This document shows, in pieces, positions 3,001-64,000 of a stretch of 64,000 nt of DNA (position 1 is its first letter; every line of letters begins with the position of its first letter). This DNA is from Azolla caroliniana. Lineage: Eukaryota; Plantae; Polypodiophyta. The translations under genes were made by a program, and so were the position numbers. A model generated the notes under the pieces. The model was given only the letters and a program-made list of their open reading frames with translations. It had not been told where the DNA came from and searched no databases. The stretch is taken from positions 434,001-498,000 of the forward strand of contig JBHGNT010000016.1 in the NCBI GenBank assembly GCA_043228905.1, read 5' to 3'.

Positions 3001-6000
3001 TTTTAATACCATATCAGAGCTAGCGTTGCTAGCTTCGATTCGCATGTTTGAACACAAAAATCCGATATCACACGAGCCTGGTATGAACATTTTAATTTAC
3101 TAACGCGCTCTTCTCCACTACGTCCTCAAATTTACTAATTTCTTCATGTCTCTCTACCTGAGTTTCAAAATGTTGATTTTTTATATGTATATTAGAGCTA
3201 GCGTTGGTAGCTTCGATTCGCATGTTTGAACACAAAAATCCGATATCACACGAGCTAGGTATGAACATTTTAATTTACTAACGCGCTCTTCTCTACTACC
3301 TCCTCAAATTTGCTAATTTCTTCATTTGTGTCGACCTGAGTTTCAAAATCTTGATTTTTTAATTCCATATGACAGCTAGCGTTGTTAGCTTCGCTTCGCA
3401 TGTTTGAACAAAGAAATCCGATATCACAAGAGCCAGGTATGAACATTTTAATTTACTAACGCGCTCTTCTCCACTACCTCTTCAATTTTGCTAATTTCTT
3501 CATATCTCTCGAGCTGAGTTTCAAAATCTTGATATTTTAATTCCATATCAGAGCTAGTGCTGTTAGCTTCGATTCGCATGTTTCAACATAGAAATCCGAT
3601 ATCACACGAGCCAGGTATGAACATTTTAATTTACCTACTAGCTCTTGTCAACTCCCTCCTCAAATTTGCTAATTTCTTCATGTGTGTCGACCTAAGTTTC
3701 AAAACTTGATTTTTTAATTCCATATCACAGCTAGCGTTGTTAGCTTCGATTCCCATTTTTGAAAACAATAATCCGATATGACACGAGCTAGGTATGAACA
3801 TTTTAATTTACCTACTAGCTCTTGTTAACTCCCTCCTCAAATTTGTTAATTTCTTCATGTCTCTTGATCTGAGTTTCAAAATCTTGATTTTTTAATTCCT
3901 ATCAGAGCTAGCGTTGCTAGCTTCGATTCGCATGTTTGAACACAAAAATCCGATATCACACGAGCCAGGTATGAACATTTTAATTTACCTACTAGCGCTT
4001 GTCAACTCCCTCTTCAAATTTGCTAATTTCTTCATCTCTCTCGACCTGAGTTTCAAAATCTTGATTTTTTAATTCCATATCAGAGCTAGCGTTGTTAGCT
4101 TCGATTCACATGTTTGAACACAAAAATCCAATATCACACGAACCACGGATGAACATTTTAATTTACCTACTAGCACTTGTCAACTCCCTCCTCAAATTTG
4201 CTAATTTCTTCATGTCTCTCGACCTGAGTTTCAAAATCTTGATTTTTTAATTCCATATCAGAGCTAGCGTTGTTAGCTTCGATTCGCATGTTTGAACACA
4301 AAAATCCCATATCATACGAACCACGTATGAACATTTTAATTTACCTACTAGCGCTTGTCAACTCCCTCCTCAAATTTGCTAATTTCTTCATGTCTCTCGA
4401 CCTGAGTTTCAAAATCTGGATTTTTCAACTCCTTAACAGAGCTAGCGCTGTTACCTTCGATTCGCATGTTTGAACACAAAAATCCGATATCACACGAGCC
4501 ACGGATGAACATTTTAATTTACTAACGCGCTCTTCTCCACTACCTCCTCAAATTTGCTAATTTCTTCATGTCTCACGACCTGAATTTCAAAATCTTGATT
4601 TTTTAAATCCATATCTGAGCTAGCGTTGTTAGCTTCCATTCGCATGTTTGAACACAAAAATCCGATATCACAAGAGCCACGGATGAAGATTTTAATTTAC
4701 TAACGCGCTCTGCTCCACTACCTCCTCAAATTTGCTAATTTCTTCATGTCTCTCGACCTATGTTTCAAAATCTCGATTTTTTAATTGCATATCAGAGTAA
4801 GCGTTGTTAGCTTCGATTCGCATGTTTGAATACAAAAATACGATATCACACGAGCCACGTATGAACATTTTAATTTACCTACTAGCTCTTGTCAACTCCC
4901 ACCTGAAATTTGCTAATTTCTTCACGTCTCTCGACCTGACTTTCAAAATCTTGACTTTTTAATTCCATATCAGAGCTAGCGTTGTTAGCTTTGATTCTTA
5001 TGTTTGAACACAGAAATCCGATATCACACGAGCCAGGTATGAACATTTTAATTTACCTACTAGCTCTTGTCAACTCCCTCCTCAAATTTGTTAATATCTT
5101 CATGTCTCTCGACCTGAGTTTCAAAATCTTGATTTTTTAATACCATATCAGAGCTAGCGTTGCTAGCTTCGATTCGCATGTTTGAACACAAAAATCCGAT
5201 ATCACACGAGCCTGGTATGAACATTTTAATTTACTAACGCGCTCTTCTCCACTACGTCCTCAAATTTACTAATTTCTTCATGTCTCTCTACCTGAGTTTC
5301 AAAATGTTGATTTTTTATATGTATATTAGAGCTAGCGTTGGTAGCTTCGATTCGCATGTTTGAACACAAAAATCCGATATCACACGAGCTAGGTATGAAC
5401 ATTTTAATTTACTAACGCGCTCTTCTCTACTACCTCCTCAAATTTGCTAATTTCTTCATTTGTGTCGACCTGAGTTTCAAAATCTTGATTTTTTAATTCC
5501 ATATGACAGCTAGCGTTGTTAGCTTCGCTTCGCATGTTTGAACAAAGAAATCCGATATCACAAGAGCCAGGTATGAACATTTTAATTTACTAACGCGCTC
5601 TTCTCCACTACCTCTTCAATTTTGCTAATTTCTTCATATCTCTCGAGCTGAGTTTCAAAATCTTGATATTTTAATTCCATATCAGAGCTAGTGCTGTTAG
5701 CTTCGATTCGCATGTTTCAACATAGAAATCCGATATCACACGAGCCAGGTATGAACATTTTAATTTACTAACGCGCTCTTCTCCACTACCTCCTCAAATT
5801 TGCTAATTTCTTCATGTGTGTCGACCTAAGTTTCAAAACTTGATTTTTTAATTCCATATGACAGCTAGCGTTGTTAGCTTCGATTCGCATTTTTGAACAC
5901 AATAATCCGATATGACACGAGCTAGGTATGAACATTTTAATTTACCTACTAGCTCTTGTTAACTCCCTCCTCAAATTTGTTAATTTCTTCATGTCTCTTG

Positions 6001-28806: not shown

Positions 28807-28846
28807 TGTTGAACACGGTGCTCGGCCACAACCGAGGAATAGGATC
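28807..28846 (-). repeat. 40-bp remnant of the copia 3' LTR (U5 end)
   Basis: TGTTGAACACGGTGCTCGGCCACAACCGAGGAATAGGATC is identical to 32030-32069, then switches directly into RT coding sequence. Confidence 0.95.
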
Positions 28847-30492
28847 TTCAGCATCTGTATCTTGACCTGGTCCCGTCCGACGATCAACATGTCGTCCACG
28901 TACAGGAGGAGTATTAGAAAGTCTCCTCCTTCGAACTTCTTCACAAACACGCAGTGATCGGACTGCGTTTTGTGGTACCCTTCGTCGGTCATGAAAGAGT
29001 CGAACTTCCAGTACCATTGCCGGGGAGCCTGCTTCAGTCCGTAAAGGCTCTTCTTCAACCGGCATACCAGGTGCTCCTTCCCTTTCTTCTCGAATCCTTC
29101 CGGTTGCTGCATGTAGATCTCTTCTTCGAGGTCACCGTGAAGGAATGCCGTCTTCACGTCCATCTGTTCTACCTCGAGGTCCATGCTTGCCGCTATGCTC
29201 AGCACCGTCCGGATGGAGGTCATCTTCACTACCGGGGCAAATATCTCGTCGAAGTCGACGCCCTTCTTCTGCTGAAACCCCTTCACCACGATCCTGGCTT
29301 TGTATCTCGGGGGGTTTCCGGCATCTCCCGGTTTCAGCTTGAACACCCACTTGTTTCGAAGTGCCCGCTTTCCTTTCGGCAACTCCACAAGTTCATATGT
29401 GTGGTTCTCATGCAGGGAATCCATCTCCTCCTGCATGGCACTTAACCACCTGCGGCTATGGGTGTCAAGCTTTGCTTCTTCAAAACTCTCCGGCTCCCCC
29501 TCCTCGGTTAGCAGCACGTGCTCTGGTTCCGGAAATCTCCGGGGGGCCCTTCTCTCTCTTAGAGGATATCTCCGTTCCGGAGCTTCGGTAACCGGCTCCT
29601 CCGTTTCCTCTTCATCCGAATCCATTTCGGGATCGGGGCCGGTTCCGGTATCAGTTTCATCTTCCTCGGCCGGTTCTGTTTCTTCACCGTCTTCGGCCGG
29701 ATCCTCGAGTGCTAACCGGTCCCTTGCCGGTCGGGACTGCTCCTCGTAGAGTTGATCCTCACCGGACGACTTGGAGCTCTTCATCTTCTTCTCCGACTCC
29801 CAGTCGGCGAGTGTCTTGTCCTCCATGAAGATGATATCACGACTCCGGAATATCTTTTTGTCGACCGGGTCCCATACTCGGTAGCCGAACTCGTCGTCGC
29901 CGTAACCAAGGAATATGCATGGCCGGGTCTTTGGGTCTAGCTTTCCTCTCCGGTCCTTTGCCACATGCACATATGCGAGACACCCGAACACCTTCAGATG
30001 CCGGTAGGATACTTCCCTACCGGTCCACACTCTCTGCGGCGTGTCTCCGTCCAAAGGTACTGAGGGTGATCTGTTTATCACGTATGTCGCCGTCGACATT
30101 GCCTCAGCCCAAAACCCCTTGGGTAATTTCGCATGCGCCAGCATACTCCGGACCCTCTCCATTATGGTCCGGTTCATCCTCTCGGCCAGCCCGTTCAGTT
30201 CCGGCGTCTTCGGCACAGTAAACTCGAGCCGGATTCCCTTCGAGCGACAGTACTCCTCGAACTGCCCCCGGTATTCCCCTCCGTTATCCGCTCGTATCGC
30301 TTTCAGCTCCTTGCCGGATTCCCTTTCCACTCTCGCGTGGAGTTCTTTGAAGACGGACAATACTTGGTCCTTTGTCTTCAACGGTGCCGTCCACAGCTTC
30401 CGGCTATGGTCATCTATGAATGTTACGAAGTACTGGGCTCCGCCATGTGACTTCGTTTCTACCTGACACACATCAGTGTGTACCAACTCCAA
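28847..30492 (-). CDS. Copia integrase core and reverse transcriptase (fragment, no RNase H)
   Basis: LVHTDV, IRADNGGEY and NGLAERMNRT (DDE), CIFLGY, KARIVVKGF, QMDVKTAFLHG, SLYGLKQAPRQW, LLYVDDML. Confidence 0.9.
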
Positions 30493-30540
30493 TGGTACAC
30501 TACGTCTCGTCGGTGGCCTTGAGTGGAAGGAGGTTCGGTT

Positions 30541-31998
30541 CTATTTACCGGCCAGGCAATCGGTGCACTTCTCCAGGTGCACATACTTCACTGGAATAAG
30601 GTTGTCTTCTGCAAGCCTCTTCATCCCCTTCTCACTCATGTGACACAGTCTCTTGTGCCACAGCTCACCGGCAGTATCGGCTGCCACGTTCAGCTCCTCC
30701 GGACATAGCCGGGAATTCATCAGGTACAGGGTGTTGACCTTCCGGGCCCGAGCCACTATCAGGCTCCCTTTGCTGAACTTCATGACACCGTTCCGGATGC
30801 TACCCGTGTAGCCTTCATCGTCTAGCCTCCCGGCCGAAATCAGGTTCAATCGGACCTCCGGAACGTGTCGTACATCCTTCAGCAGCATCTTGCATCCGGT
30901 TGACGTCATCAGCCACACGTCTCCTATGCCGGCAATCCGGCATGTACCTTCATTTCCCATCCGGACACAGCCGTGCTCACCGGCTGTATAGGATGAGAAG
31001 TATTTCTTCTCCGGGGTCAGGTGGAACGACGCTCCGGAATCGACCACCCAGGTCATCTCTTCACCGGCAAGGTTTAGCTCCCTCTCTTCGGTAATGAGCA
31101 TTATCTCTTCTTCACTTGCCGCGAGTGCCGTCGTTCCTTTCCGGTCCTGCCCTCGCCGATCCGGACCTCTCCGGTCCGTGGCTCCCCGGTATGCACCGTT
31201 TCGCTCCGGTGACTTCTTCGAATCGGTACCGTCGGTTCCGTTGTCTTTCCGGAAATGCCGACAGTTCTTCTGGAAGTGCCCCGGCTTCCCACAGTAGAAG
31301 CATGTAGGTCTTCCCCTTGACTGCGACCGTGTCCCCGACTTCTCCCGTCTTTGCGGGCTCCGGTTCCGTTGTCTTCCCCGTTCCGATTCGGTAAGCAGCG
31401 CCTTCGAGCCGGAGGCCGGTTCTTTATCTCTCCGACGCGCTTCTTCATTTAGAATACTTGTCTTTACCGTTAGTAAAGACAAGTTCTCTTCCTTACAGGA
31501 GGTGCTGAGAGTAACTACCAAGTTCTCCCAGCTCTCCGGAAGGGTACACATCAGCATGATGGCTTGCATTGCGTCATCCAACGGGAACTTGATCGCTGCA
31601 AGCTGGTTCACGAATCCCATGAACGTGCTGACGTGTTCGACCATGCTCTCGCCGTCCCGGTACTTAAGATTCACTATCTTCCTCATCAGGGAGGTCCGGG
31701 TCAGAGCATTCTTCCTCTCATACAGTCCGGACAGCTTCTGCCACATCTCATAGGCGTTCGTATCGTTCGCCACATGTTGCAGGACACTTACATCGACATA
31801 TTGCCGGATCGTCGCTACGGCTTTCCGGTTCAGGAGCTTCCACTCCGACTCTATTACCCCCTTGGGTATCTCGGCATTGTCGATCGGTTCGTACAGGTCT
31901 CGGACGATGAGAAGGTCTTCCATCTTTATCTTCCAGTCGGCGTAGTTCTGTGAGTTCAACACCATCATGCCCGGAGGCCCACTACCACCGCCTTCCAT
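30541..31998 (-). CDS. Copia Gag, zinc knuckle, aspartic protease and integrase Zn-binding region (fragment)
   Basis: CFYCGKPGHFQKNC (CCHC knuckle), WVVDSGASFH (protease), LWHKRLCHMS...CTDCLAGK (HHCC/GAG-pre-integrase). The ORF-track start at 32052 lies in the LTR and is not the real start. Confidence 0.88.
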   Translation of the reverse strand: MEGGGSGPPGMMVLNSQNYADWKIKMEDLLIVRDLYEPIDNAEIPKGVIESEWKLLNRKAVATIRQYVDVSVLQHVANDTNAYEMWQKLSGLYERKNALTRTSLMRKIVNLKYRDGESMVEHVSTFMGFVNQLAAIKFPLDDAMQAIMLMCTLPESWENLVVTLSTSCKEENLSLLTVKTSILNEEARRRDKEPASGSKALLTESERGRQRNRSPQRREKSGTRSQSRGRPTCFYCGKPGHFQKNCRHFRKDNGTDGTDSKKSPERNGAYRGATDRRGPDRRGQDRKGTTALAASEEEIMLITEERELNLAGEEMTWVVDSGASFHLTPEKKYFSSYTAGEHGCVRMGNEGTCRIAGIGDVWLMTSTGCKMLLKDVRHVPEVRLNLISAGRLDDEGYTGSIRNGVMKFSKGSLIVARARKVNTLYLMNSRLCPEELNVAADTAGELWHKRLCHMSEKGMKRLAEDNLIPVKYVHLEKCTDCLAGK

Positions 31999-32014
31999 TT
32001 TCTGTGTTACCGTC

Positions 32015-32026
32015 GCTCTGATACCA
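32015..32026 (-). promoter_or_regulatory. Primer-binding site for tRNA-iMet
   Basis: Minus strand reads TGGTATCAGAGC, 3 nt downstream of the 5' LTR end. Confidence 0.95.
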
Positions 32027-32029
32027 CTT

Positions 32030-32646
32030 TGTTGAACACGGTGCTCGGCCACAACCGAGGAATAGGATCAACTCACAGAAAATAGGAAATACAAAATGCA
32101 CGAAGACAATAGAGAGAAAAGTACACAGGATGTTTTACGTGGAAAACCCTAAATGGGAAAAACCACGGAAGTCCTCAAACTCCAACTATCACTATGAACA
32201 GAGATGTACAATGGTGAAGCCACAAGGCAACAACCTTGAGCTCACTGTCTTCGCCACAAGCGGCGGTAATACACAGAGGCAACGACCTCTTCGTCTTTCT
32301 CTCTCTCTCTCTCTCTCTCGGCTGCTCCCTTCACTCTCTCTAAGTGGAAAACAGAAAATGAGCAGCAGTCACTAAACTGTTTGCCCTAAGTCATATTTAT
32401 ACACATATGACTTTCGGGCTATTTACAAATATAGCCTCAAGGGCCCTTGGCAAACATATTCACAAATATGTCCCCGCATCCGGATCTCTCTCCGGGTACA
32501 TTCATCATCCGGCTCCGTAGCCGGGGTCTTCGTCATCCGGCTCCGTAGCCGGGGTCTTCTCTTCATCATCCGATTCCGTAACCGCAACCAGGCTTGCCGT
32601 CATTCATTTCCGGACATCCCATCCGGAGGGACCGAAAATCCCAACA
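32030..32646 (-). repeat. Copia 5' LTR (617 bp)
   Basis: Minus strand TGTTGGGATT...GTGTTCAACA. TATAAATA at 32394-32401 (minus). (GA)n tract near 32298-32319. 28-bp tandem repeats in the U3 region at 32505-32580. Confidence 0.93.
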
Positions 32647-50600: not shown

Positions 50601-53321
50601 TCAGAGCAAGCATTGTTAGCTTTGATTCGCATGTTTGAATACAGAAATCCGATATCACACGAGCTAGCTAATTTCTTCATGTCTGTATCATATCAGAGCT
50701 AGCGTTGTTAGCTTTGATTTGTATGTTTGAACACAGAAATTCGATATCACACGAGCCAGGTATGAAGATTTTAATTTACCTACTACTTCTTGTCAACTCC
50801 CTCCTCAAATTTGCTAATTTCTTCATGTCTGTCGACCTGAGTTTCAAAATCTTGATTTTTTAATTCCATATCAGAGCTAGCGTTGTTAGCTTCGATTTGC
50901 ATGTTTGAACAGAAATATCCGATATCATACGGGCCAGATATAAACATTTTAATTTACCTACTAGCTCTTGTCAACTCCCTCCTCAAATTTGCTAATTTCT
51001 TCATGTCTCTCGACCTGAGTTTAAAAATCTTGATTTTTCAATTCCATATCAGAGCTAGCGTTGTTAGCTTCAATTCGCATGTTTGAACACAAAAATCCGA
51101 TATCATAGGGGCCAGATATAAACATTTTAATTTACCTACTAGCTCTTGTCAACTCCCTCCTCAAATTAGCTAATTTCTTCATGTCTCTCGACCTGAGTTT
51201 CAAAATCTAGTTTTTTAATTCCGTATCAGAGCTAACGTTGTTAGCTTCGATTCGCATGTTTGAACACAAAAATCCGATATCATACGGGCCAGGTATGAAC
51301 ATTTTAACTTAGTTACTAGCGCTTGTCAACTCCCTCCTCAAATTTGCTAATTTCTTCATGTCTCTCGACCTGAGTTTCAAAATCTTGATTTTTCAATTTC
51401 ATATCAGAGCTAGCGTTGTTAGCTTCGATTCGCATGTTTGAACACAAAAATCCGATATCATACGGGCCAGGTATGAACATTTTAATTTACTTACAAGCTC
51501 TTCTAAACTCCGTCCTCAAATTTGCTAATTTCTTCATGTCTCTCGACCTGAGTTTCAAAATCTTGATTTTTCAATTCCATATCAGAGCTAGCGTTGTTAG
51601 CTTCGATTTGCATGTTTGAACACAAAAATCTGATATCATACGGGCCAGGTATGAACATTTTAATTTACTTACCAGCTCTTCTAAACTCCCTCCTCAAGTT
51701 TGCTAATTTTGTTCATATCTCTCGACCTGAGTTTCAAAATCTTGATTTTTAAATTCTATATCATATCAAGCATTGCTAGCTTCGATTCGCATGTTTGAAC
51801 ACAAAAATCTGATATCACACGAGCCAGGTATGAACATTTTAATTCCCTCCTCAAAATCGCTAATTTCTTCATGTCTCTCGACCTGAGTTTCAAAATTTTG
51901 ATTTTTTAATTCCATAGAAGAGCTAGCGTTGTTAGCTTCGATTCGCATGTTTGAACACAGAAATCCGATATCACACGAGCCAGGTATGAACATTTTAATT
52001 TACATACTTGCTCTTGTCAACTCCCTCCTCAAATTTGCTAATTTCTTCATGTCTCTCGACCTGAGTTTCAAAATCTTGATTTTTGATTTCCATATCAGAG
52101 CTAGCGTTGTTAGCTTTGATTCGTATGTTTGAACACAGAAATTCGATATCACACGAGCCAGGTATGAACATTTTAATTTACCTAGTACCTCTTGTCAACT
52201 CCCTCCTCAAATTAGCTAATTTCTTCATGTCTGTCGACCTGAGTTTCAAAATCTTGATTTTTTAATTCCATATCAGAGCTAGCGTTGTTAGTTTCGATTC
52301 GCATGTTTGAACACAAAAATCTGATATCAGACGAGCCAGGTATGAACATTTTGATTTACTAACGCGCTCTTCTCCACTACCTCCTCAAATTTGTTAATTT
52401 CTTCATGTCTCTCGACCTTATTTTCAAAATCTTGATTTTTTAATTCCATTTTAGAGCTAGCATTGTTAGCTTCGATTCGCATGTTTGAACACAGAAATCC
52501 GATATCACACGAGCCAGGTATGAACATTTTAATTTACCTACTAGCTCTTGTCAACTCCCTCCTTAAATTTGTTAATTTCTTTATGTCTCTTGACCTGAGT
52601 TTCAAAATCTTGATTATTTAATTCCATATCAGAGCAAGCGTTGTTAGCTTCGATTTGCATGTTTGAACACAAAAATCCGATATCACACGAGCCAGGTATG
52701 AACATTTTAATTTACCTACTAGCTCTTGTTAACTCCCTCCTCCAATTTGCTAATTTCTTCATGTCTCTCGACCTGAGATTCAAAATCTTGATTTTTGAAT
52801 TCCATTTTTGAGCTAGCGTTGTTAGCTTCGATTCGCATGTTTGAACACAGAAATCTGATATCACACGAGCCAGGTTTGAACATTTTAATTTACCTACTAG
52901 CGCTTGTCAACTCCCTCCTCAAATTTGCTAATTTCTTCATGTCTCTCGACCTGAGTTTCAAAATCTAGATTTTTCAATTCCATATTAGAGCTAGCGTTGT
53001 TAGCTTTGATTCTTATGTTTGAACACAGAAATCCGATATCACACGAGCCAGGTATGAACATTTTAATTTACCTACTATCTCTTGTCAACTCCCTCCTCAA
53101 ATTTGTGAATTTCTTCATGTCTCTTGACCTGAATTTCAATATCTTGATTTTTGACTTCCATTTTAGAGCTAGCTTTGTTAGCTTCGATTCGCATGTTTGA
53201 ACACAGAAATCCGATATCACACGAGCCAGGTATGAACATTTTAATTTACCTACTAGCGCTTGTGAACTCCCTCCTCAAATTTGCTAATTTCTTCATGTCT
53301 CTCGACCTGAGTTTCAAAATC
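32647..53321. repeat. 178-bp tandem satellite array, right arm
   Basis: Same monomer and orientation as the left arm. Ends abruptly mid-monomer at ...GAGTTTCAAAATC (53321). Confidence 0.97.
33067..48606. repeat. Higher-order repeat, 37 monomers (6502 bp), about 2.4 near-identical tandem copies
   Basis: Spurious ORFs recur at exactly +6502 (33269/39771/46273 and 34315/40817/47319). 37x178 -22-21-21-22+1+1 = 6502, matching the four shortened and two lengthened monomers in the unit. Confidence 0.95.
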
Positions 53322-54980
53322 ACCAAAAACAAAAAAAGTTTACACTTTGACCCCACATCTAATCCTCACCTTGATGCAATTATTAACATTAACTCTAACC
53401 CTACCCCAAAATCAAACCCTAACCCTCTCCCCATCCCTAAATCTACCCCAAAAAACAATAACTTTAATCCCAACATAACATCTAACCACAAATCCCACCG
53501 TAATCCTTGTAAACAAAATCCTTACCCTACTCCCAACCATACTAAACCCAACCCTAAAACAAAGTCTAATAGGAATCCTAACCCTAACTCTAAACCGAAA
53601 CCTAACCCTAACCATAACCCAAAACCGAACCATAACCCTAACCCGAAACCCAAACCCAATCTCACTAAGAATCTAAACCCTAAACCCCACCCAAAATCTG
53701 TAAAATACACACGCCCTTTCGGCCCTTCACAACAACCGCACCAGCGTCGCCAACAACACCCTCTTCGACCACCGCCGCCGCCACCATTACCACCATCCAA
53801 GCCTCGGCAAAAATTCTACACTTATAACATAACAACACACGAAATTACTCCGCGCCATAATTTAGATTCCAATCAATACGAACCAATAGTTAAATTTATT
53901 GGTTTCAACGAACCCGAACTTCTCCAACGAATGCAACTCCGCCATATACCTTCCGCCCCATTTCAGCCCAAAGCAAACACTATCCATAGCTTCTCCTCTC
54001 CATTTCCTCCTGAAAACAAACAACAAGTATACCTTTACCGGCATCAAAACCGAGGCCAACCTAACAATGGTTTTCAGCCGCTGCCGCCGCCGCCTCCGCA
54101 ACCGCAACACCACGAGCCCTGGAGATATATGACGGAAAGAGAACACCAAATGCACTCATATCAGCATCGACATCAACATATAAATCAACGCCAACCCAAC
54201 AATGATCTTCAGCCGCAACCGCCACCGCCACCGCCGCCACCGCCACCACCATGCGACCAGCCCTGCAAATTACAGCAGCCTCTTCTGCCGACGCCTCGAC
54301 CCCCGCCGTTTTCTCACCCTCTCCAACATCAACCTCCCTCTCGGACAACATACGAGACGGCAATTAATAACATAACCACCACCAATTATCAGCTCCAACC
54401 GCCACTTGAGGAGGACACACCACTCCACCATTCGCGAGATACCTATCATCAGATTCACCACCAGCCCCAACACACCCCATTCAGTTTCATCGCTCCCCCC
54501 TTGTATCCCTCCCCCGAAGACCTTCAACCCCAAAACAATACTCATCCTTACCCTCCTACCCATACCCACTGTGTAAATCCTAACGCTCACCCTACCCCTA
54601 ACTCTCCTTCTCTTTCGTTTTCTTTTTATACTCCTCCTAATAATTCTAGAAATACCTTTCCTACCCCCCCCTCTCACAACTATTCACACACACTAAGCCC
54701 CCCTTGGTTTAAAGAAACTACCCACAATCACAACATAAACCCTCCCCTATTTTCCCAAATACCCTTAGCCTTCCCCAACCCCTCATACACCTCTCTTAAC
54801 CCCTACATCCCTAACCACTACACCCAATCAACCCATACCCAACATCCTCCTTACACCACCTCTACCAAACCATCCACAAGTTGTATCCACCCCTCAACTA
54901 GTCACCCTAAATCCCCTATGTATTCTTCTCACATCACACTTCCCACCACTCAGAACCTCCACCGGCCAAAAAACGTTTAG
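53322..54980 (+). CDS. PLE ORF1, Pro/His/Gln/Asn-rich low-complexity protein, 5'-truncated
   Basis: About 550 stop-free codons with NP/KP dipeptide repeats, poly-Pro tracts and an internal repeat (QPNNGFQP / QPNNDLQP). The first ~57 aa in the ORF track are chance read-in from the satellite. No recognisable domain. Confidence 0.6.
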   Translation, partial: TKNKKSLHFDPTSNPHLDAIININSNPTPKSNPNPLPIPKSTPKNNNFNPNITSNHKSHRNPCKQNPYPTPNHTKPNPKTKSNRNPNPNSKPKPNPNHNPKPNHNPNPKPKPNLTKNLNPKPHPKSVKYTRPFGPSQQPHQRRQQHPLRPPPPPPLPPSKPRQKFYTYNITTHEITPRHNLDSNQYEPIVKFIGFNEPELLQRMQLRHIPSAPFQPKANTIHSFSSPFPPENKQQVYLYRHQNRGQPNNGFQPLPPPPPQPQHHEPWRYMTEREHQMHSYQHRHQHINQRQPNNDLQPQPPPPPPPPPPPCDQPCKLQQPLLPTPRPPPFSHPLQHQPPSRTTYETAINNITTTNYQLQPPLEEDTPLHHSRDTYHQIHHQPQHTPFSFIAPPLYPSPEDLQPQNNTHPYPPTHTHCVNPNAHPTPNSPSLSFSFYTPPNNSRNTFPTPPSHNYSHTLSPPWFKETTHNHNINPPLFSQIPLAFPNPSYTSLNPYIPNHYTQSTHTQHPPYTTSTKPSTSCIHPSTSHPKSPMYSSHITLPTTQNLHRPKNV

Positions 54981-55025
54981 TACGGCGTGCTAAAAGATCA
55001 AACCGACGTTTTAGACACGCCGTAC
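54968..55025 (+). promoter_or_regulatory. Candidate -1 programmed ribosomal frameshift signal
   Basis: A AAA AAC (54968-54974) in the correct phase of ORF1, a 5-nt spacer, then stem GTACGGCGTG (54980-54989) / CACGCCGTAC (55016-55025), extended by CTAAAA / TTTTAG. Confidence 0.7.
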
Positions 55026-55098
55026 ACCCAACTAAACGTGTGTGGTATTTTGTTAATGGTAACTCTACCCCCTAGATTCCTCTAATTGGCTAGGTAAC

Positions 55099-56652
55099 AT
55101 GTCACATAGAATCCCCTTTAGACCACATACAAAAAAAACACGTAAAAAGAAACTTAGATATAAATTTTGGAAACCCCTTACAACACCCTTTAGTCCCCCT
55201 CATAGTAGTAAAATCCACAACCTTTCTACACATACCCTTAGCAAGTCAGAAATTAAACTTCTTAACCTAGGTCTTAAGTTTATACCTCCCTCCCCCCTCC
55301 CCACCTCCACTTCTATTCTTCAAGAATTCCATAACCTTAGTAGATCCCTTAGACTTAGACATTTCTTTCAAGACGACTCCTCCGTCCCACACAACCCCTT
55401 TAAACTACCCAACCCCTCTTGGAACCCCCCTACACAATACCCACCGTTAGAAGACATACTTCATAAACACCTTAATCTCCTCACCATAAAACTCCATAAT
55501 ACAAACCTACCCACTAAACACATTCCACTACACCTACTACAAGCCTTAAAAAGCCTTAAAAGCAATAAACACATTATCATCCTCCCCGCAGACAAAAATG
55601 TAGGTGTTTGTGTCTTAAACAAACAAACATACCTAGATAAAGCCCTAGCTCACCTATCCGATACATCCACTTACAAACCCGTAGATACCTTCCCCTTAGA
55701 AGAACTCCTACATAGATTAAAAACCTTAATGAATCAACACCTAGGAACCCTCTCCCTCATAGAAATAAAATTCATCTTACACAAACCATCCAACGAATAC
55801 CGAGTCCCCACCATGTACTTCCTACCCAAAGTACACAAAGAACCCATTGGCTATAGGCCTATTTGTTCTTACAACGGTTCGTTATTTGAACAAACTTCTA
55901 AGTGGCTACACCACCAACTCCTCCCCATACTCCTACAACAAAAACAATACCTTAGAGACTCATTCTCCTTAGTACAATCCCTAGAAAACCTCACGACACC
56001 ACCCAATAGCTTCATCTTTTCATTTGACGTAGAATCCCTCTACCCGAGTATTCCACCAAAACTAGGACTACTAGCCCTAAAACACCTAATTACCCCCCAT
56101 TTCTCAAAACAAAAAGCCAACCTCATCTATACTCTCAGCGCCTTAACCTTAGAATATCACTTCCTTAAATTTAATAACCAAATCTATCAACAAATTAAAG
56201 GCACAGCCATGGGAAGCAATTTTTCCGTAGTATATGCTTGCCTTTTTTTGTCATACCTCGAGAATTCCAACCCATCTCCCCATTTATTTTATTTCACGAG
56301 ATATATTGACGATGCCTTTGGTGTATGGACCGGTACGAAAACACAACTCTTAGACTACCTAAATTTCTATAGTATTACCACTCAAAACTCCATTAAACTG
56401 ACCATCCAAACCTCTCTCACTAAACTTCCTTTTCTCGACCTTTGGATAAACCTCGCTAATAATAATTTCAACTTTAATTGTTTTCAAAAAGAACTTAATA
56501 CTTACCAATACATACCCTTCACCTCGACACATCCTATCCACGTCAAAAAAAGCTTCCTCTCGAACGAACTTAAAAGATACATTATTAGAGAAAGTACAGC
56601 CCAAGGTTATTTAAAAATGCAACAACTATTTTTTAAGAGACTACGAGCATGA
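55099..56652 (+). CDS. Penelope-like reverse transcriptase (main fragment)
   Basis: NLS...LLNLGLKFIP, ILPADKN, YFLPKVHK, YRPICS, SFDVESLYPSI, QIKGTAMGS, RYIDDAFGVW, PFLDL, YIPFTSTHP. The TGA at 56650-56652 falls in the expected RARGYP motif (CGA>TGA) and the frame stays open to 56857. Confidence 0.92.
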   Translation: MSHRIPFRPHTKKTRKKKLRYKFWKPLTTPFSPPHSSKIHNLSTHTLSKSEIKLLNLGLKFIPPSPLPTSTSILQEFHNLSRSLRLRHFFQDDSSVPHNPFKLPNPSWNPPTQYPPLEDILHKHLNLLTIKLHNTNLPTKHIPLHLLQALKSLKSNKHIIILPADKNVGVCVLNKQTYLDKALAHLSDTSTYKPVDTFPLEELLHRLKTLMNQHLGTLSLIEIKFILHKPSNEYRVPTMYFLPKVHKEPIGYRPICSYNGSLFEQTSKWLHHQLLPILLQQKQYLRDSFSLVQSLENLTTPPNSFIFSFDVESLYPSIPPKLGLLALKHLITPHFSKQKANLIYTLSALTLEYHFLKFNNQIYQQIKGTAMGSNFSVVYACLFLSYLENSNPSPHLFYFTRYIDDAFGVWTGTKTQLLDYLNFYSITTQNSIKLTIQTSLTKLPFLDLWINLANNNFNFNCFQKELNTYQYIPFTSTHPIHVKKSFLSNELKRYIIRESTAQGYLKMQQLFFKRLRA

Positions 56653-56857
56653 GGATACCCTACACAGTTTATCCTCAATATATTCAAAAAACACCCCTAT
56701 TCCCTTAGACCAACTCTCCTCTCAAACAAAACCATTAACCAAACCCCCACACCCATAATCTTTAAACTAAAATTCACACACCAAGCCCCTAATCTAGGAA
56801 TAAAAGAAACCCTTACTAGCCTACACTTAAACCTCCAAGAAGACCCTCTACTACAAC

Positions 56858-57312
56858 TATTATAGATCTAGATACTAACGTAAGCTTAAGATAAGGATAA
56901 TGAAAAGATAGATAGAAAGGAGAAAGAGAAAGAAGGGTGCCGATCCACCCGACCACCCCCGAGCGAAGGGATCGAGACGGACTCGAGCCTCGATCGGCGT
57001 CCCATACCACCGCCGTGGCGTCGAGTCGTACCTGGTGCTGGCGCGCTCGCTACAAGAATTGACCCACCACACGAGCAGAGTCTCGATGTAGTCAAAAGAT
57101 GATCAAATGAGGGTAGCTAGGCCTCTTATTTATAGCGAAACCCAAGGCCCCCAGGCAAGTTCACACTTGACCTAATGGGTTGTCTCAATCCCGAGGATTA
57201 AAAGTAATCCTCCCCTTCTTTACACTCTCATTTAACCCTCACACTTATCCACGTGTATAGAATACTACGGTAAATTCTTACCACGGGATATTATATGGTC
57301 ATGCCCGTAACA
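56858..57312 (-). repeat. Gypsy 3' LTR (455 bp)
   Basis: Direct repeat of 63410-63864. Minus strand TGTTACGGGC...CTATAATA. TATAAATA at 57127-57134. Confidence 0.95.
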
Positions 57313-59716
57313 TACTCCCCCTCTTTAAAACATTGCACTCTTGCAATGGAAAGTTAGGGAAGTTAGTTCTAAGAGTATTTTCGCGTTCCCATGTGGCATC
57401 TTTTATTGATTTATCCATCCATTTTATTTTGAATTCTCGGATTTCTTTAGTACGTAATTTTTTTGATTTAACATCGAGAATTCTTTCTGGTACATGTGGT
57501 TTAGAAGATAATTCTTCAGAAGTAACCAGAGTTTCAGTTGTAACTGTATTGTCGCCAGAACCTAGAAGTTCTTTTAGACGACTCACATGAAAGACTGGAT
57601 GAATTCCGACACCATCGGGAAGAGCGAGACGATAGGCTGATGACCCAATGCGTTTGAGGACTGTAAAAGGTCCACAAAACCGTGGGGCTAACTTAGCGCA
57701 CTTACCCGTAGACAATGTCTTAGAATTGTGAGGTACCCGTAAAAATACCTTCTGTCCAGGGTTGAATACACGAGGTTGCCTATGATGATCGGCATAAAAA
57801 CGCGCTCTATCTTGAGCTGTTTTTATATTATCTCGTGCAATATGCAACATATCTTGCATATCCCGAAGAAAGTTTTGCGTACTTCGCAACTCATCATGAT
57901 GTATATTAACATCAATCGGGGCTCGTGGCTGAAAACCATACATCAACATAAAAGGACTATATCCCGTCGACGTATGCTTGGAGCTGTTATAAGCAAACTC
58001 CAAAATTGGGAGATAACGTTCCCATTTTGTTGGTTTTGCACCAACGTATGCTCGAAGCATGTCCTCAATAATTTGATTTACTCGTTCTGTCTGTCCATCG
58101 GATTGAGGATGATCCGTGGAGCTCATGCTCAACGTAGTTTCTAACTTCTTAAAGACTTGTGTCCAGAAGTCACTAGTAAACTTTGGATCTCGAGCACTCA
58201 CGATATCCATCGGTAACCCATAAAAACGAAACAATTCGTCAACGAATTGGTAAGCCAATTCAGGAGCTGTTACCGTGGTTTTAGTAGCAATAAATCTGGC
58301 CATTTTAGTTAGTCGATCAACGACAACCCAGATGGCATCATGACCTTTTTGGGTGCGAGGAAGGCTAACAATAAAATCCATGGATATACTTTCCCACTTA
58401 TTATTGGGAATGTCCAAGGGATGTAAAAGTCCTGCGGCTTTAAGTCGCTCGGCTTTGTTAACCTGATACTGGTGACATTTAGTCACATAGCTATGTATGT
58501 CAGGACGCATCTTAGGCCAATAAAATTGAGTGGAGATGAGAACGAGTGTACGATGTATTCCAGGGTGCCCTGTTGAGGGTGCATCATGGCATTCAAAAAG
58601 AATCCTCTTTTTGACCTCGGGTAAATCTGGAACACAAACCTTCCCATTACGGTAGAGCAAACCGTTAGCAATGTGGAAGTATTCCTTCGAGGATGTGGTG
58701 GTGTCTGTTCCAGACTCAACTCTTGCCCAGTATTTTGCGAAATAACTGTCATCAGGATACTTTCCTCGAAGGTGATCATAAAGATCTGATGATATTTCAG
58801 TGAAGCTAAGCGTGTTAACTTCACGGATGCGACTTAGTGCATCAGCGACAGTGTTCATGGAACCTTTACGATATCGTATGGAAAAATCAAAGTCCTGGAT
58901 GAGATCAGCCCATCGTGCCTTACGACCTTTCAGGTCTTGTTGGTCACAAAAATATTTCAAGGACTCGTGGTCCGTTGTTACCACAAAGTGATTTCCATAA
59001 AGATAATGGCGCCATGTTTTGAGCGCATGTATAACTGCAAATAATTCCTTTTCTTGAACGGTATACCGACATTGAGCAGAATCAAGTTTCTTACTCTCGA
59101 ATGCTATTGGTTTACCATCTTGATACAAGACAGCACCTATAGCATAATCGCTTGCATCGGTTTCAACCTCGAAAGGTTTTGAAGGATCAGGTAAAAGAAG
59201 TGAAGGAGCCTTGAAAACTAGGTCCTTGAGTTCCTTAAATGCAAGGTCTAGTGTAGCATTCCACACAATAGGTTTTGTAGACTTACGCGTTTGACCTTTT
59301 AAAAGATCAGTAAACGGCATCGTCAATTGGGAGTAATTACGAAGAGACTTTCGCAAAAACCCCACAAAACCAAGGAATGATCGAACTTCTCGAATATTCC
59401 GAAGAGTGGGCCAAAGCTTGATTTTCTCAATGCGAGAAGGATCAATTTCAACTCCTCGTTCGGTTATGAGATGTCCTAGATAAGTAATTGATTTCTTGAA
59501 GAACTCACATTTTGAGATCTTCGCATAAAACTGTTTGTCACGCAATGTTTGTAAAACAAAGCGGACATGTCTAGCATGTTCTTGTAATGTACGGCTATAA
59601 ACTAAAATATCATCCAAGAAAATAACGACAAATTTTCCAAGTTGTTCTCGGAAAATGTCATTCATTTCTTGTTGAAAAGTAGCCGGAGCATTGGTCAAAC
59701 CAAAAGGCATAACCAA
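57299..59716 (-). CDS. Gypsy RT C-half, RNase H, integrase, GPF/Y motif and chromodomain (fragment)
   Basis: [63 protein letters not shown]...IKW...DATWE. Confidence 0.92.
57315..57326 (-). promoter_or_regulatory. Polypurine tract
   Basis: Minus strand AAAGAGGGGGAG, 2 nt upstream of the 3' LTR. Confidence 0.9.
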
Positions 59717-59902
59717 AAACTCGTAATGGCCATAGCGCGTACGAAATGTCGTTTTAGGAACATTGTCCTCACTTATTCGTATTTGATGGTAGCCAGTACG
59801 GAGATCAAGTTTCGTAAAATACCGAGCTCCCTAGAGACGGTCAATTAGATCGTCAGCCCGGGGCAATGGATACGAATTCTTGATCGTCACTTTATTCAAG
59901 CG

Positions 59903-61324
59903 TCAGTAATTAATACACATACGCCATGTGCCCTCTTTCTTTTTAACCAAGAGAACTGGTGCACCCCATGGAGATTTACTATAACGTATATAACCCATTC
60001 GTAAATAGTCCTTGAGTTGCTTAGATACCTCATCTTCTTCGGATCGACTTAAGCGATACGGAGGTATACTTATTGGTGCAACACCAGGTACAATATCTAT
60101 ACGATGGTCTATATTACGTTTAGGAGGTAACCCATCAGGTAGTTCACTTGGAAAAACATCATGAAAATCATTTAAGATTTCATCAAGTTGTTGTTGTTCA
60201 AAATATGTTAATTGAATCGGGACATTATCGATATTGTAAACGTGAATGTCCGGATCAAGTACACAATAAAATAACGTAGAACAAGACAACTCGGATATTG
60301 ATGGACACGAGGAAACAATCGAGAGGGATTGTTTTTTTACACATTGAATAAAATGCGTACAATCGTTCAGTACAAAAGAAATGGAATGACGAACCCAATC
60401 AATAAATAAAGAAGAGTTTTTATTATAAAACCAGGGATAACCCAGTATTACATCGGTGGTACAAAGATTCATTACATGGAAGTCTACTTCCTCTTTATAA
60501 GTATCAATAGAAATTCCTAATGAATGAATCGCCTCGTTGATGTATTGTACTCTTCCATCAGCCAAGTGCACCGTGTAGGTGTGATCACTTACGGTGGGTT
60601 GGATTCCCCATATCTGAACCAAACGATCATTCACAAAATTGTGTGAGCTTCCCGAATCAAATAAAAATTGTACAGGAGATCCATTGATATACCCGTTTGC
60701 ACGTAGTAAATCATTGGGACCCAATACATAGTGAGGGAAAGAACATTGACAATTACTTAAATGGTGTGTATAGACCTGAAGGACATTAGGAATCTGACCT
60801 TTATGGTCTGCAGCTTTAGCTTTGTTGTCTTGCTCTTTCCGTTGGAGCTTTCGACATTGATCTTTTGTATGACCCTTCTTTTTGCAGAATACGCAAAAAG
60901 GATGTTGTCGCTTACAATCGCGATCCAGGAATTCATTGGGTGTCTTGCGTTTCCCAACAAATTGCGACTGCTTAGTCCCGGGCGCTTCGTTGGGTTTGTT
61001 ATGGTCCTTCTTCGAAGTGCGTTGGTAGCAAAGAACTATTTCAACGGCCTCTTCGAAGGATTTTGGATCCTTATCGTGCACTATCCAGTGATAGTCCGAA
61101 TTGGGGATGCCATTGACAAAACAAGCTATCAACCAATTGTCCCCTTCTAGACCCGATTTTTGGATTTGGGTCCTAGCATGGTGAACATAGTCTTCTAGCG
61201 AGGAAAATTTCCTGCTAGAGAGGTTCATTAAAGCTTGTGCTACCTCGGTTCGAGAGGGAGGTTGCAGAAATTGGCCCTTAAAAACCGTGACAAAATCTGT
61301 CCAGGTATCAGGCAATTTCCCCAT
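59903..61324 (-). CDS. Gypsy Gag C-half, zinc knuckle, protease and RT N-terminus (fragment)
   Basis: CVFCKKKGHTKDQC, LFDSGSSHNF, DVILGYPW, LPPKRNIDHRI, SPWGAPVLLVKKK. Confidence 0.88.
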   Translation of the reverse strand: MGKLPDTWTDFVTVFKGQFLQPPSRTEVAQALMNLSSRKFSSLEDYVHHARTQIQKSGLEGDNWLIACFVNGIPNSDYHWIVHDKDPKSFEEAVEIVLCYQRTSKKDHNKPNEAPGTKQSQFVGKRKTPNEFLDRDCKRQHPFCVFCKKKGHTKDQCRKLQRKEQDNKAKAADHKGQIPNVLQVYTHHLSNCQCSFPHYVLGPNDLLRANGYINGSPVQFLFDSGSSHNFVNDRLVQIWGIQPTVSDHTYTVHLADGRVQYINEAIHSLGISIDTYKEEVDFHVMNLCTTDVILGYPWFYNKNSSLFIDWVRHSISFVLNDCTHFIQCVKKQSLSIVSSCPSISELSCSTLFYCVLDPDIHVYNIDNVPIQLTYFEQQQLDEILNDFHDVFPSELPDGLPPKRNIDHRIDIVPGVAPISIPPYRLSRSEEDEVSKQLKDYLRMGYIRYSKSPWGAPVLLVKKKEGTWRMCINY

Positions 61325-61432
61325 AGTACGGAGGCCACGCCACCAGGCGGCGGCCTTACCCCCGAGTTCTCAGCCGACATATGCAATCTTCGTACTATCT
61401 GGCATGGGATAGAGCTCAAAATGAGACTCCCA

Positions 61433-61732
61433 TCATCCCAGCCATGTGCAGATTGCTTCTTCGGTTCTTTCCTTTTTGTCTCCCGTAAATGGCTTAACGA
61501 CAAATGATGGTTCACCTTGTCGCTCATCAGGTCTATTAGTCTCACGTTGTAGACTAATGACACGTGCCTCAAGAGCACTCTGAGATTGCCGAAGTTCGGT
61601 CATCTGTTGAGCGGTGAAACTAAGGAATTGGGTTATTTGTGCCAAATACATCTCAGTGGACATTTGTCCAGGAGGATTCCCTTGAGTTCCTTCCGCTTGA
61701 GCGGATGACATCGGGTCATTAATTTGAGCCAT
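61433..61732 (-). CDS. Gypsy Gag N-terminus (fragment)
   Basis: In frame with the downstream gag (61732-61324 = 408 nt). Coiled-coil-like segment, then PFTGD...W; readthrough gives LGGKAAAWW. Confidence 0.75.
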   Translation of the reverse strand: MAQINDPMSSAQAEGTQGNPPGQMSTEMYLAQITQFLSFTAQQMTELRQSQSALEARVISLQRETNRPDERQGEPSFVVKPFTGDKKERTEEAICTWLG

Positions 61733-62897
61733 TAAAGATTATTTCTGGAAAAGAAATAGGATAAGGTCAGAGATATAGTCATAACATCATGTCGTGATGT
61801 AAACATATCATGGGCGAGCATTAATCGATATCATTATCTCACGTCAATACCCCTCTAGACGTATGAGATGAGGTTCAAGATCAGGTTACTATGGTAACAC
61901 AAAGGTGTTTTAAAAACCATGGGGGTGACAAATAAATGTCTTTCCCTGATCTCTATATCAATTTTTTCATGGTGGCTCCCCGAGGCTCAACCATGTATGT
62001 TCGCGTCATGAATAGTTTATACACGAAAAAAATGTTAACAATAAACTATGTTTCGGTGCCCACATAAGTGGTTTCGGCTCTTGAAGTCCTATTACGAGGA
62101 CCCCGAGGTGCACTTAGACCTTAAGTCTAAACATGTGTTATAGTCATATGTATCAAGGATGTTGTATGGTCTTGGTCATATTTGAACTCGAGACCTCGAG
62201 AACAAATACATTAAACACTTGAGCCAACCAAGTAAGTTGGTCTTCTCGAATGTTTAATATTTGATGCGTATAAGAGATATGCGAGGCAATTGATCATATA
62301 TGTTTTTTTAAAAGAACATATATGTCAAGGGTCCTTATTTCGCCCTCATTTACCAAAACTATGTTGGTACGTTACCTAACCTCAAGTCTCGTAATTACGA
62401 TGGCATACGCCAAAGTGCAACCTAATGGTCAAGCCAAATGAGCCCTCGTTTCGTAGTAGGCTCATGTGGGCCATCACATGGTCACGTCATTACGAATGCC
62501 TCTCGTAAGAACGAGCTCATGGTGGCATCGTATCCATGTAACAAGGGAGGGATGTTGGATACGTGCGTCATTGGAGCGACCTCACTTGAAGTGGGTCAAG
62601 CCCTACGTACTCAACATCATTATGGCTATTGCGTTTCTTTACGTAACGAAATCGAGGTCATCAACAATAAAAAATTGTTGAAAATGGGATGGTGACAACG
62701 CCATTCTCACAAAAATGTGAGGATGGCCACCAACATCCTTTTCCCGACCATGACAACTTTCGATATAATCACGTAATAACGAATATACACATATGTTTAC
62801 TTATCACATATATACGATCAAATACGTATATATGTGACCACATATGCCTATATTAAACATATCGTTATATTAAATAGCCACAAATGATGTGATCGAG

Positions 62898-63160
62898 ATA
62901 CGTAATCGAGGTATATACCTCTACGCACACGAAACATCCACAAATAAGAGATCATCGTAATACGCAATGGAGGTATTGACCTCTTACGCATACGAGACCA
63001 AACCCATATCGTTTACAACAAATCAAGGTATTGAACTCATACGCAAACGTAACATATGTTCGTGAACGTAATACGTAATTGAGGTATTAACCTCGTACGC
63101 ATACGACACTCATCACATATTATTAATATGTCAAACGAGGTATTGACCTCGTGCACATAT
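62898..63160 (-). repeat. Five palindromic repeats with dissimilar spacers in the gypsy 5' leader
   Basis: Core GAGGT-N4-ACCTC at 62908, 62970, 63025 (degenerate), 63081 and 63137. Spacing is 62, 55, 56 and 56 bp. Confidence 0.8.
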
Positions 63161-63397
63161 GTAAACGTTTTAGATAATCAATTAAAGACCACTACAACAT
63201 CATTGACTTAATGAAAAAGAATTACATATAAATTAAACACATGATTAGATGGGAGAAGAGAGAATAGAAAGAAAAATTCTGGAAAGAGTTACCGAAGTTC
63301 TTTGTTGATCGTTGTTTGGATCAAGGCCAACCGCACAACGATCGATCAGCATCAATCAAAAGACAAATGAAAAACAAAGAAACATTAGTACATAAAA

Positions 63398-63407
63398 TCT
63401 GATACCA
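63398..63407 (-). promoter_or_regulatory. Primer-binding site for tRNA-iMet (10-nt match)
   Basis: Minus strand TGGTATCAGA, 2 nt downstream of the 5' LTR end. Confidence 0.88.
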
Positions 63408-63409
63408 AA

Positions 63410-63864
63410 TATTATAGATCATAGCACTAATGTAAGCTTAAGATAAGGATAATGAAAAGATAGATAGAAAGGAGAAAGAGAAAGAAGGGTGCCGATCCAC
63501 CCGACCACCCCCGAGCGAAGGGATCGAGACGGACTCGAGCCTCGATCGGCGTCCCATACCACCGCCGTGGCGTCGAGTCGTACCTGGTGCTGGCGCGCTC
63601 GCTACAAGAATTGACCCACCACACGAGCAGAGTCTCGATGTAGTCAAAAGATGATCAAATGAGGGTAGCTAGGCCTCTTATTTATAGCGAAACCCAAGGC
63701 CCCCAGGCAAGTTCACACTTGACCTAATGGGTTGTCTCAATCCCGAGGATTAAAAGTAATCCTCCCCTTCTTTACACTCTCATTTAACCCTCACACTTAT
63801 CCACGTGTATAGAATACTACGGTAAATTCTTACCACAGGATATTATATGGTCATGCCCGTAACA
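63410..63864 (-). repeat. Gypsy 5' LTR (455 bp)
   Basis: Direct repeat of 56858-57312. TATAAATA at 63679-63686 (minus). Followed on the plus strand by TSD ACAAC. Confidence 0.95.
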
Positions 63865-63869
63865 ACAAC

Positions 63870-63961
63870 ACATCCCCAAACCAATAATTTGTTGGACTAA
63901 ATCTAAAAATCTACACTCTTCACTAGTCAACACAAAAAACATTACTATAGATCCACACTAA
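63870..63961 (+). pseudogene. C-terminal end of the PLE RT ORF beyond the gypsy insertion
   Basis: Joining 56857 to 63870 gives in-frame ...QEDPLLQHIPKPIICWTKSKNLHSSLVNTKNITIDPH* with TAA at 63959-63961. The reconstructed ORF from 55099 is 1851 nt. Confidence 0.85.
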
Positions 63962-64000
63962 CTCCTCTCCATATTTTTATTTTTTTTAAACCACAAGTTT

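Follow-up and report, generated by a model that had tools for sequence, protein, structure and literature searches.

We find that the junction between the upstream reading frame (ORF1) and the reverse transcriptase (RT) frame of a Penelope-like element (PLE) in Azolla caroliniana very probably carries a conserved programmed -1 ribosomal frameshift signal, a reading drawn from the layout of the junction, the phase of its slippery heptamer, its conservation, and the selection acting on it. In the mechanism we propose, most ribosomes would stop one codon past the heptamer and release ORF1p, and a minority would pause at a downstream hairpin while tRNA-Lys (AAA) and tRNA-Asn (AAC) occupy the heptamer. 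Ribosomes paused in this way would slip back by one base, giving an ORF1-RT fusion of ~1,530 aa as the minority product. The outcome would be an excess of helical ORF1 protein over RT, resembling that of Gag over Gag-Pol, with the RT tethered to ORF1 protein.

The junction in the window and in an intact copy

The window is the whole 64,000-nt stretch analyzed here (A. caroliniana assembly GCA_043228905.1, contig JBHGNT010000016.1, positions 434,001-498,000 of the forward strand), and its features are collected in Table 1. An earlier note on this DNA had described an ORF1 ending in CCA AAA AAC GTT TAG, with a phased heptamer, a 5-nt spacer, and a 10+6 bp stem, and all of its coordinates check. 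The stem pairs positions 54980-54989 with 55016-55025 (10 bp) and, after one bulged A, 54990-54995 with 55009-55014 (6 bp). The predicted hairpin has an energy of -24.6 kcal/mol (z -7.76) that is equaled in 0 of 200 shuffles, and its 12-bp core (54984-54995 with 55009-55021) is kept across families. It was equally correct that the -1 frame stays open for 35 codons and meets a TAG (55073-55075) immediately after the C5 run.

Table 1. Features of the PLE copy in the window (positions in the window)
Feature	Position	Strand	Remarks
ORF1, 3' two-thirds	53319..54980	+	Pro/Asn/His-rich, low complexity
Slippery heptamer A AAA AAC	54968..54974	+	in ORF1 phase
Transframe segment	54968..55098	+	upstream of the RT frame's first AUG (55099)
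Spacer	54975..54979	+	5 nt to the window stem, 9 nt to the family-invariant core; overlaps the ORF1 TAG (54978-54980)
Predicted stimulatory hairpin	54980..55025	+	10+6 bp
PLE-type RT	55063..56857	+	DKN, RT core, thumb; no GIY-YIG
C5 run	55068..55072	+	one base shorter than in every other copy seen; breaks the -1 frame here
Ty3/gypsy chromovirus-type LTR retrotransposon	56858..63864	-	in the RT 3' end; 5-bp target duplication ACAAC
RT ORF remainder and start of the 3' region	63865..64000	+	RT stop at 63959-63961

In the window copy the RT ORF (55063-56649; RVT_1 E 5.6e-6) lies in the +1 frame relative to ORF1, and the earlier note had predicted that an extra C would fuse the -1 frame to it. That base was found: the run is C6 in all six sequencing runs that cover the site and in a related locus, L001, and a C6 run places the RT in the -1 frame relative to ORF1. 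The extra C stands at full contig depth in X1, X5, X7, and X9 (four studies) and is also present in X2 and in one X10 contig, all of this being evidence from contigs, which lose rare variants, and from a set whose best matching runs may include the window's own sample. The C5 may be either a mutation or an assembly error; compared with L001, the window copy shows a further homopolymer change, an extra T in the 3' T run.

L001 is a whole unit, 98.9% identical to the window copy over 3,546 bases. It encodes an ORF1 of 877 aa (45-2678) and an RT frame at -1 (2609-4645), and carries a hammerhead-like motif near 5444 and eight CCCTAAA repeats; the ends of its contig carry identical sequence, corresponding to head-to-tail units.

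The window copy itself is a dead member of this PLE family, because it is 5'-truncated, one base short, interrupted by a premature TGA, and split by a Ty3/gypsy insertion. The TGA (56650-56652) is absent from other copies, and contigs of four runs from four studies (X1, X5, X7, and X9) have C instead of T at 56650. The Ty3/gypsy insert contains a chromodomain and two near-identical LTRs, and its gag-pol is interrupted by stops. ORF1 begins at the position equivalent to L001:1020, where it abuts a 178-bp satellite, and as a result of this truncation it lacks the conserved helical N-terminal domain; at the other end, the window stops short of the unit's hammerhead-like motif and CCCTAAA repeats (L001:5430-6080).

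The sequence that the truncated PLE abuts (at 53319-53322) is a 53-kb array of the 178-bp satellite, not telomeric repeats. A PLE that follows the telomere-attachment model has its 5' end toward the chromosome tip. Break healing, recombination, or later expansion of the satellite may each have produced the junction. The array also houses a Ty1/copia-like LTR element on the minus strand (~28810-32646) that is GC-richer than its surroundings, and between 33898 and 48258 a higher-order pattern of the satellite recurs every ~6.5 kb, with identical TRF rows at offsets of 6,502.

Conservation of frame, heptamer, and hairpin across loci

The heptamer in the window needed comparative support, because the 610 codons of the window ORF1 frame contain seven canonical heptamers in phase. 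The strand is A/C-rich and Lys-Lys-Arg codons can spell AAAAAAC, so that a heptamer arising from A-rich sequence, an apparent stem arising from a basic peptide, and an accidental frame relation would together mimic a signal by chance. We fetched 81 loci, 62 of which form a land-plant-like group; 18 of these 62 were left out (14 without an RT N terminus and 4 with the frame broken near it), and 44 were scored. Families were defined at 90% RT identity (16 families) and groups at 55% (5 groups), and the locus counts do not represent independent events, the loci being related by descent and drawn mostly from one assembly series.

The longer upstream ORF places the RT in the -1 frame in 43/44 loci, which bears out the frame relation that the earlier note had expected of the family. 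Its slippery site is conserved as well, an in-phase XXX AAA C lying within the ORF1/RT overlap in 42/44 loci, from 14/16 families and 5/5 groups (<55% RT identity), with RT identity down to 38%; the loci where it is absent, L030 and L034, are both degenerate copies. Across the overlaps of the 16 families, XXXAAAC occurs at 18/877 positions in phase and at 2/861 and 0/861 positions out of phase, and the in-phase frequency in the ORF1 bodies is 10/7041. The overlap spans just 16-19 nt in five families and the heptamer is still inside it, which pins the frame switch to the heptamer; by chance, a 16-nt overlap would contain a heptamer with a probability of ~0.006. The combination of phased heptamer and overlap exceeds chance. 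In addition, AAA AAA is invariant at the slip site, and Lys codons elsewhere vary.

The hairpin, as the earlier note had proposed, is also a family feature. Predicted folds of the 60 nt after the heptamer reach a z of -2 or lower in 12/14 families and rank in the top 1% of windows for stability in 11/14, the better of two candidate sites being taken for L044 and L048. L041 has no hairpin (z +1.2) and that of L056 is weak (z -0.9); L042, L048, and L049 have stable hairpins with differing stem sequences. Together with the phase enrichment and the invariant AAA AAA, this stability leaves the chance reading largely refuted, and we regard it as scarcely credible.

Among 21 aligned near sequences, the 16 stem pairs are 86.6% paired and seven pairs are invariant. 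The earlier note had proposed stem covariation as a check: two-sided changes are seen in 4/16 pairs, but 229/500 shuffles reach that count, so the covariation of the stem appears modest; the covariation score lies above that of all shuffles (0/500), for sequences that are related. Protein constraint overlaps the stem region. Silent positions are frozen: within the first 20 codons, eight families share the same codon at 6/12 positions with an invariant residue, and the same residues in the RT body have identical codons in 0-17% of cases. We did not find a conserved pseudoknot helix in eight families, no loop-to-downstream helix exceeding 81% pairing.

In the distant families (38-47% RT identity), the -1 peptide can be aligned from the heptamer onward (KR...HP...LL...W); in L044 the homologous site reads G GGA AAC. 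The ORF1 stop lies 1 codon or 50-170 codons past the slip site, depending on the family, and an idea of a ribosome queue formed by a stop ten codons after the slip site was rejected as a misfit to these distances. The more distant L064, L070, L071, L074, L075, L078, and L080 keep the -1 layout, with candidate heptamers at nonalignable sites (L080 is without one) and weak hairpins (z +0.5 to -2.0). Separately, L048:2148-2178 and L051:1819-1849 each contain a tandem pair of in-phase A AAA AAC heptamers 24 nt apart and L049:3488-3503 contains overlapping heptamers; in all three loci ORF1 runs ~450-500 nt past the heptamers.

These arrangements bear on whether ORF1 and the RT frame are spliced together across an intron, for example with the conserved TAG after the heptamer as its 3' splice site. 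Introns in PLEs are indicated by a figure legend (PMC8557442, Fig. 1), near families retain the TAG, and in public gene models of Closterium, Ginkgo, Cryptomeria, and Selaginella an ORF1-like sequence continues into RT. The distant families, however, keep heptamer and hairpin with an ORF1 that runs 150-500 nt further on, and the codons upstream of the TAG vary as -1-frame codons (Arg CGN). Plant introns are U-rich, whereas the 50 nt upstream contain 2-26% U. The two Closterium models drop the conserved IHNLS motif, as predicted introns laid over a frameshift would be expected to do. We judge an intron to be very unlikely.

Selection on the RT frame points again to a frameshift. In the stretch from the slip site to MWLG, compared across 10 loci of 8 families, the -1 frame has a pN/pS of 0.31 and no stops, and the other two frames have pN/pS of 1.04 and 1.61 with 18 and 57 stops. 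Codon variation thus indicates that the -1 frame is under purifying selection from the slip site to the first AUG. The peptide encoded here is basic, following the pattern KKR..RRAKR....F.HA.HP.KR.(F/W)Y......W, and a homologous peptide is present in distant families.

The RT might instead be made separately, through initiation or termination-reinitiation past the ORF1 stop, at an AUG belonging to the RT or at a non-AUG codon, with the hairpin playing some other role. An AUG is found at codon 39 (MWLG) in 26/42 loci and at codon 44 in the window-copy family, and gene callers start proteins at that AUG. Codons ahead of the AUG are nevertheless under purifying selection in the RT frame, both in the stem part (pN/pS 0.29) and after the stem (0.32), and the codon-39 AUG is missing from the window-copy family, the L002 family (first AUG at codon 283), L020, L041-L044, and L048-L051. 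In 14/42 loci the first AUG comes only past the conserved IHN motif, 171-494 codons in. These comparisons of start codons show the RT frame to be without a conserved AUG of its own. Separate initiation, which also leaves the phased heptamer unexplained, is in our view very improbable.

Element identity and the ORF1 protein

To judge from its sequence, the element is an endonuclease-less (EN-less) plant PLE. Its nearest RT relatives are proteins of ~620 aa without GIY-YIG, the named matches being from Cryptomeria, Selaginella, Ginkgo, and Closterium; the 636-aa P0001 and its near relatives have no PF01541, whereas EN+ matches in the same list carry it, and the RT ORF terminates after the thumb. 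In a quick IQ-TREE analysis (54 rows, SH-aLRT support only, midpoint root, no reference Coprina sequences), the family falls in a clade with Selaginella, Ginkgo, and Cryptomeria RTs (SH-aLRT 99), apart from EN+ animal elements, and groups with the Selaginella RT P0029. L056 stands beside P0018 in the conifer-side clade, and the P0018 cluster includes a Picea glauca protein, ABT39_MTgene4059, which is annotated as a mitochondrial-scaffold gene and is thus a member of the EN-less PLE RT clade. These relatives, the plant telomere repeat, and the chromovirus point to a land-plant host.

The pattern CUGA(U/A)GA-stem II-GAAA, a candidate hammerhead ribozyme, is present in 20/22 loci of the land-plant group; Rfam at its gathering score detected a hammerhead in 0/13 loci, so the call comes from the pattern search. 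After the RT, CCCTAAA occurs 8, 11, and 17 times in L001, L002, and L003 and TTTAGGG 0 times, with 0-4 CCCTAAA in the fetched stretches of other families. Pfam searches of the element found no protease, RNase H, integrase, or LTR-type Gag domain, and no relatives were found in viral contigs. PLE RTs are also present in contigs of bacterial metagenome-assembled genomes (MAGs; L077-L081), most likely as eukaryotic contamination, and one of these loci, L078, has the -1 layout and the hammerhead pattern.

ORF1 contains a conserved domain of ~190 aa that is predicted to be all-helical (pLDDT 86), with homologues in Cryptomeria, Taxus, Ginkgo, Selaginella, and Closterium. A single-sequence search with ORF1 gave no match, and profile searches retrieved 4 and 51 proteins. 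No specific structural match to the predicted fold was found (best Foldseek E 0.7), and the best VIA result (Z 9.1, rmsd 4.6, 154 aligned) is within the range of generic helical bundles. Homology of the domain to the N terminus of the single-ORF EN+ L063 was not supported (hhalign probability 0.1).

Some protein traces of the junction extend to named species. ORF1 homologues of Cryptomeria and Closterium carry PKNG, as encoded by CCA AAA AAC GG, which we treat as a lead; a transframe-like peptide in Selaginella P0180 is weak (profile E 3.1; no BLASTP match) and likewise serves as a lead. At the DNA level the signal reaches L056 of the conifer-side clade, with a heptamer and a weak hairpin, and the named species are reached by protein only. 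In the gene models P0043, P0038, P0030, P0162, P0164, and P0180 (Closterium, Ginkgo, Cryptomeria, and Selaginella), the ORF1 domain and sequence from the RT frame are fused into one protein. Such fused models probably arise from predicted introns laid over the frameshift.

Expression mode and known systems

We lean slightly toward the view that the streptophyte EN-less clade, from Closterium through Selaginella and Ginkgo to conifers, ancestrally expressed its RT by way of a -1 frameshift from a helical ORF1, and that its members have been annotated as single-ORF or intron-joined since ORF1 and the recoding signal went unrecognized. Telomerase has the PLE reverse transcriptases as its sister group, and if this view is true, Gag:Gag-Pol-like stoichiometry would be a deep feature of that group. 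RT expression in EN-less PLEs has so far been poorly documented. The analysis identifies an overlooked ORF1 family common to Closterium through conifers; the frameshift would account for invented introns in gene models across that range and add a likely instance of -1 frameshifting in a non-LTR element of a plant nuclear genome. The cassette is compact (~60 nt) and comes with natural variants: A AAA AAC versus G GGA AAC, stop-adjacent versus stop-distant, and differing hairpins.

Full-text literature searches gave no report of frameshifting in plant PLEs, and early primary PLE papers may already mention the Selaginella ORF layout; the available portions of PMC12477314, PMC6431247, and PMC3846280 contain no plant frameshift, and the word frameshift is absent from PMC13159263. 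As described in the available text of PMC8557442, PMC13159263, and PMC4209133, the EN-deficient, telomere-associated Coprina PLEs include elements of Selaginella moellendorffii, and canonical hammerheads are reported in Selaginella PLEs (PMC4209133). The Azolla element shares with Coprina an RT without GIY-YIG, a hammerhead-like motif followed by reverse-complement telomeric repeats, head-to-tail units, and 5' truncation. Coprina elements typically have one ORF and Athena elements two, according to the portions of PMC13159263 available, whereas the Azolla element has a long ORF1 overlapping an AUG-less RT and a conserved -1 signal; the single-ORF feature is not strict for Coprina, because the same source reports one fungal Coprina with two ORFs.

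Compared with retroviral and LTR-element Gag-Pol, the junction has the same X XXY YYZ heptamer, 5-9-nt spacer, stable (here predicted) downstream structure, and enzyme ORF at -1, and differs in belonging to a PLE that has an all-helical ORF1 domain and is without protease, RNase H, integrase, or LTR-type Gag. A AAA AAC is the gag-pro slip site of MMTV, and a hairpin is the stimulator in HIV-1. The PLEs drawn with a frameshift and a pseudoknot are reportedly the rotifer Athena/Terminons. For animal PLE types, the legend of one figure (PMC8557442, Fig. 1) notes that a frameshift containing a pseudoknot may set ORF1 apart. As far as that legend describes them, these animal PLEs share with the Azolla element a coiled-coil-type ORF1 upstream of the RT and probably a frameshift link and an EN-less telomeric lifestyle, and the Azolla element differs from them in its land-plant clade, its simple hairpin, and its compact 6-kb unit.
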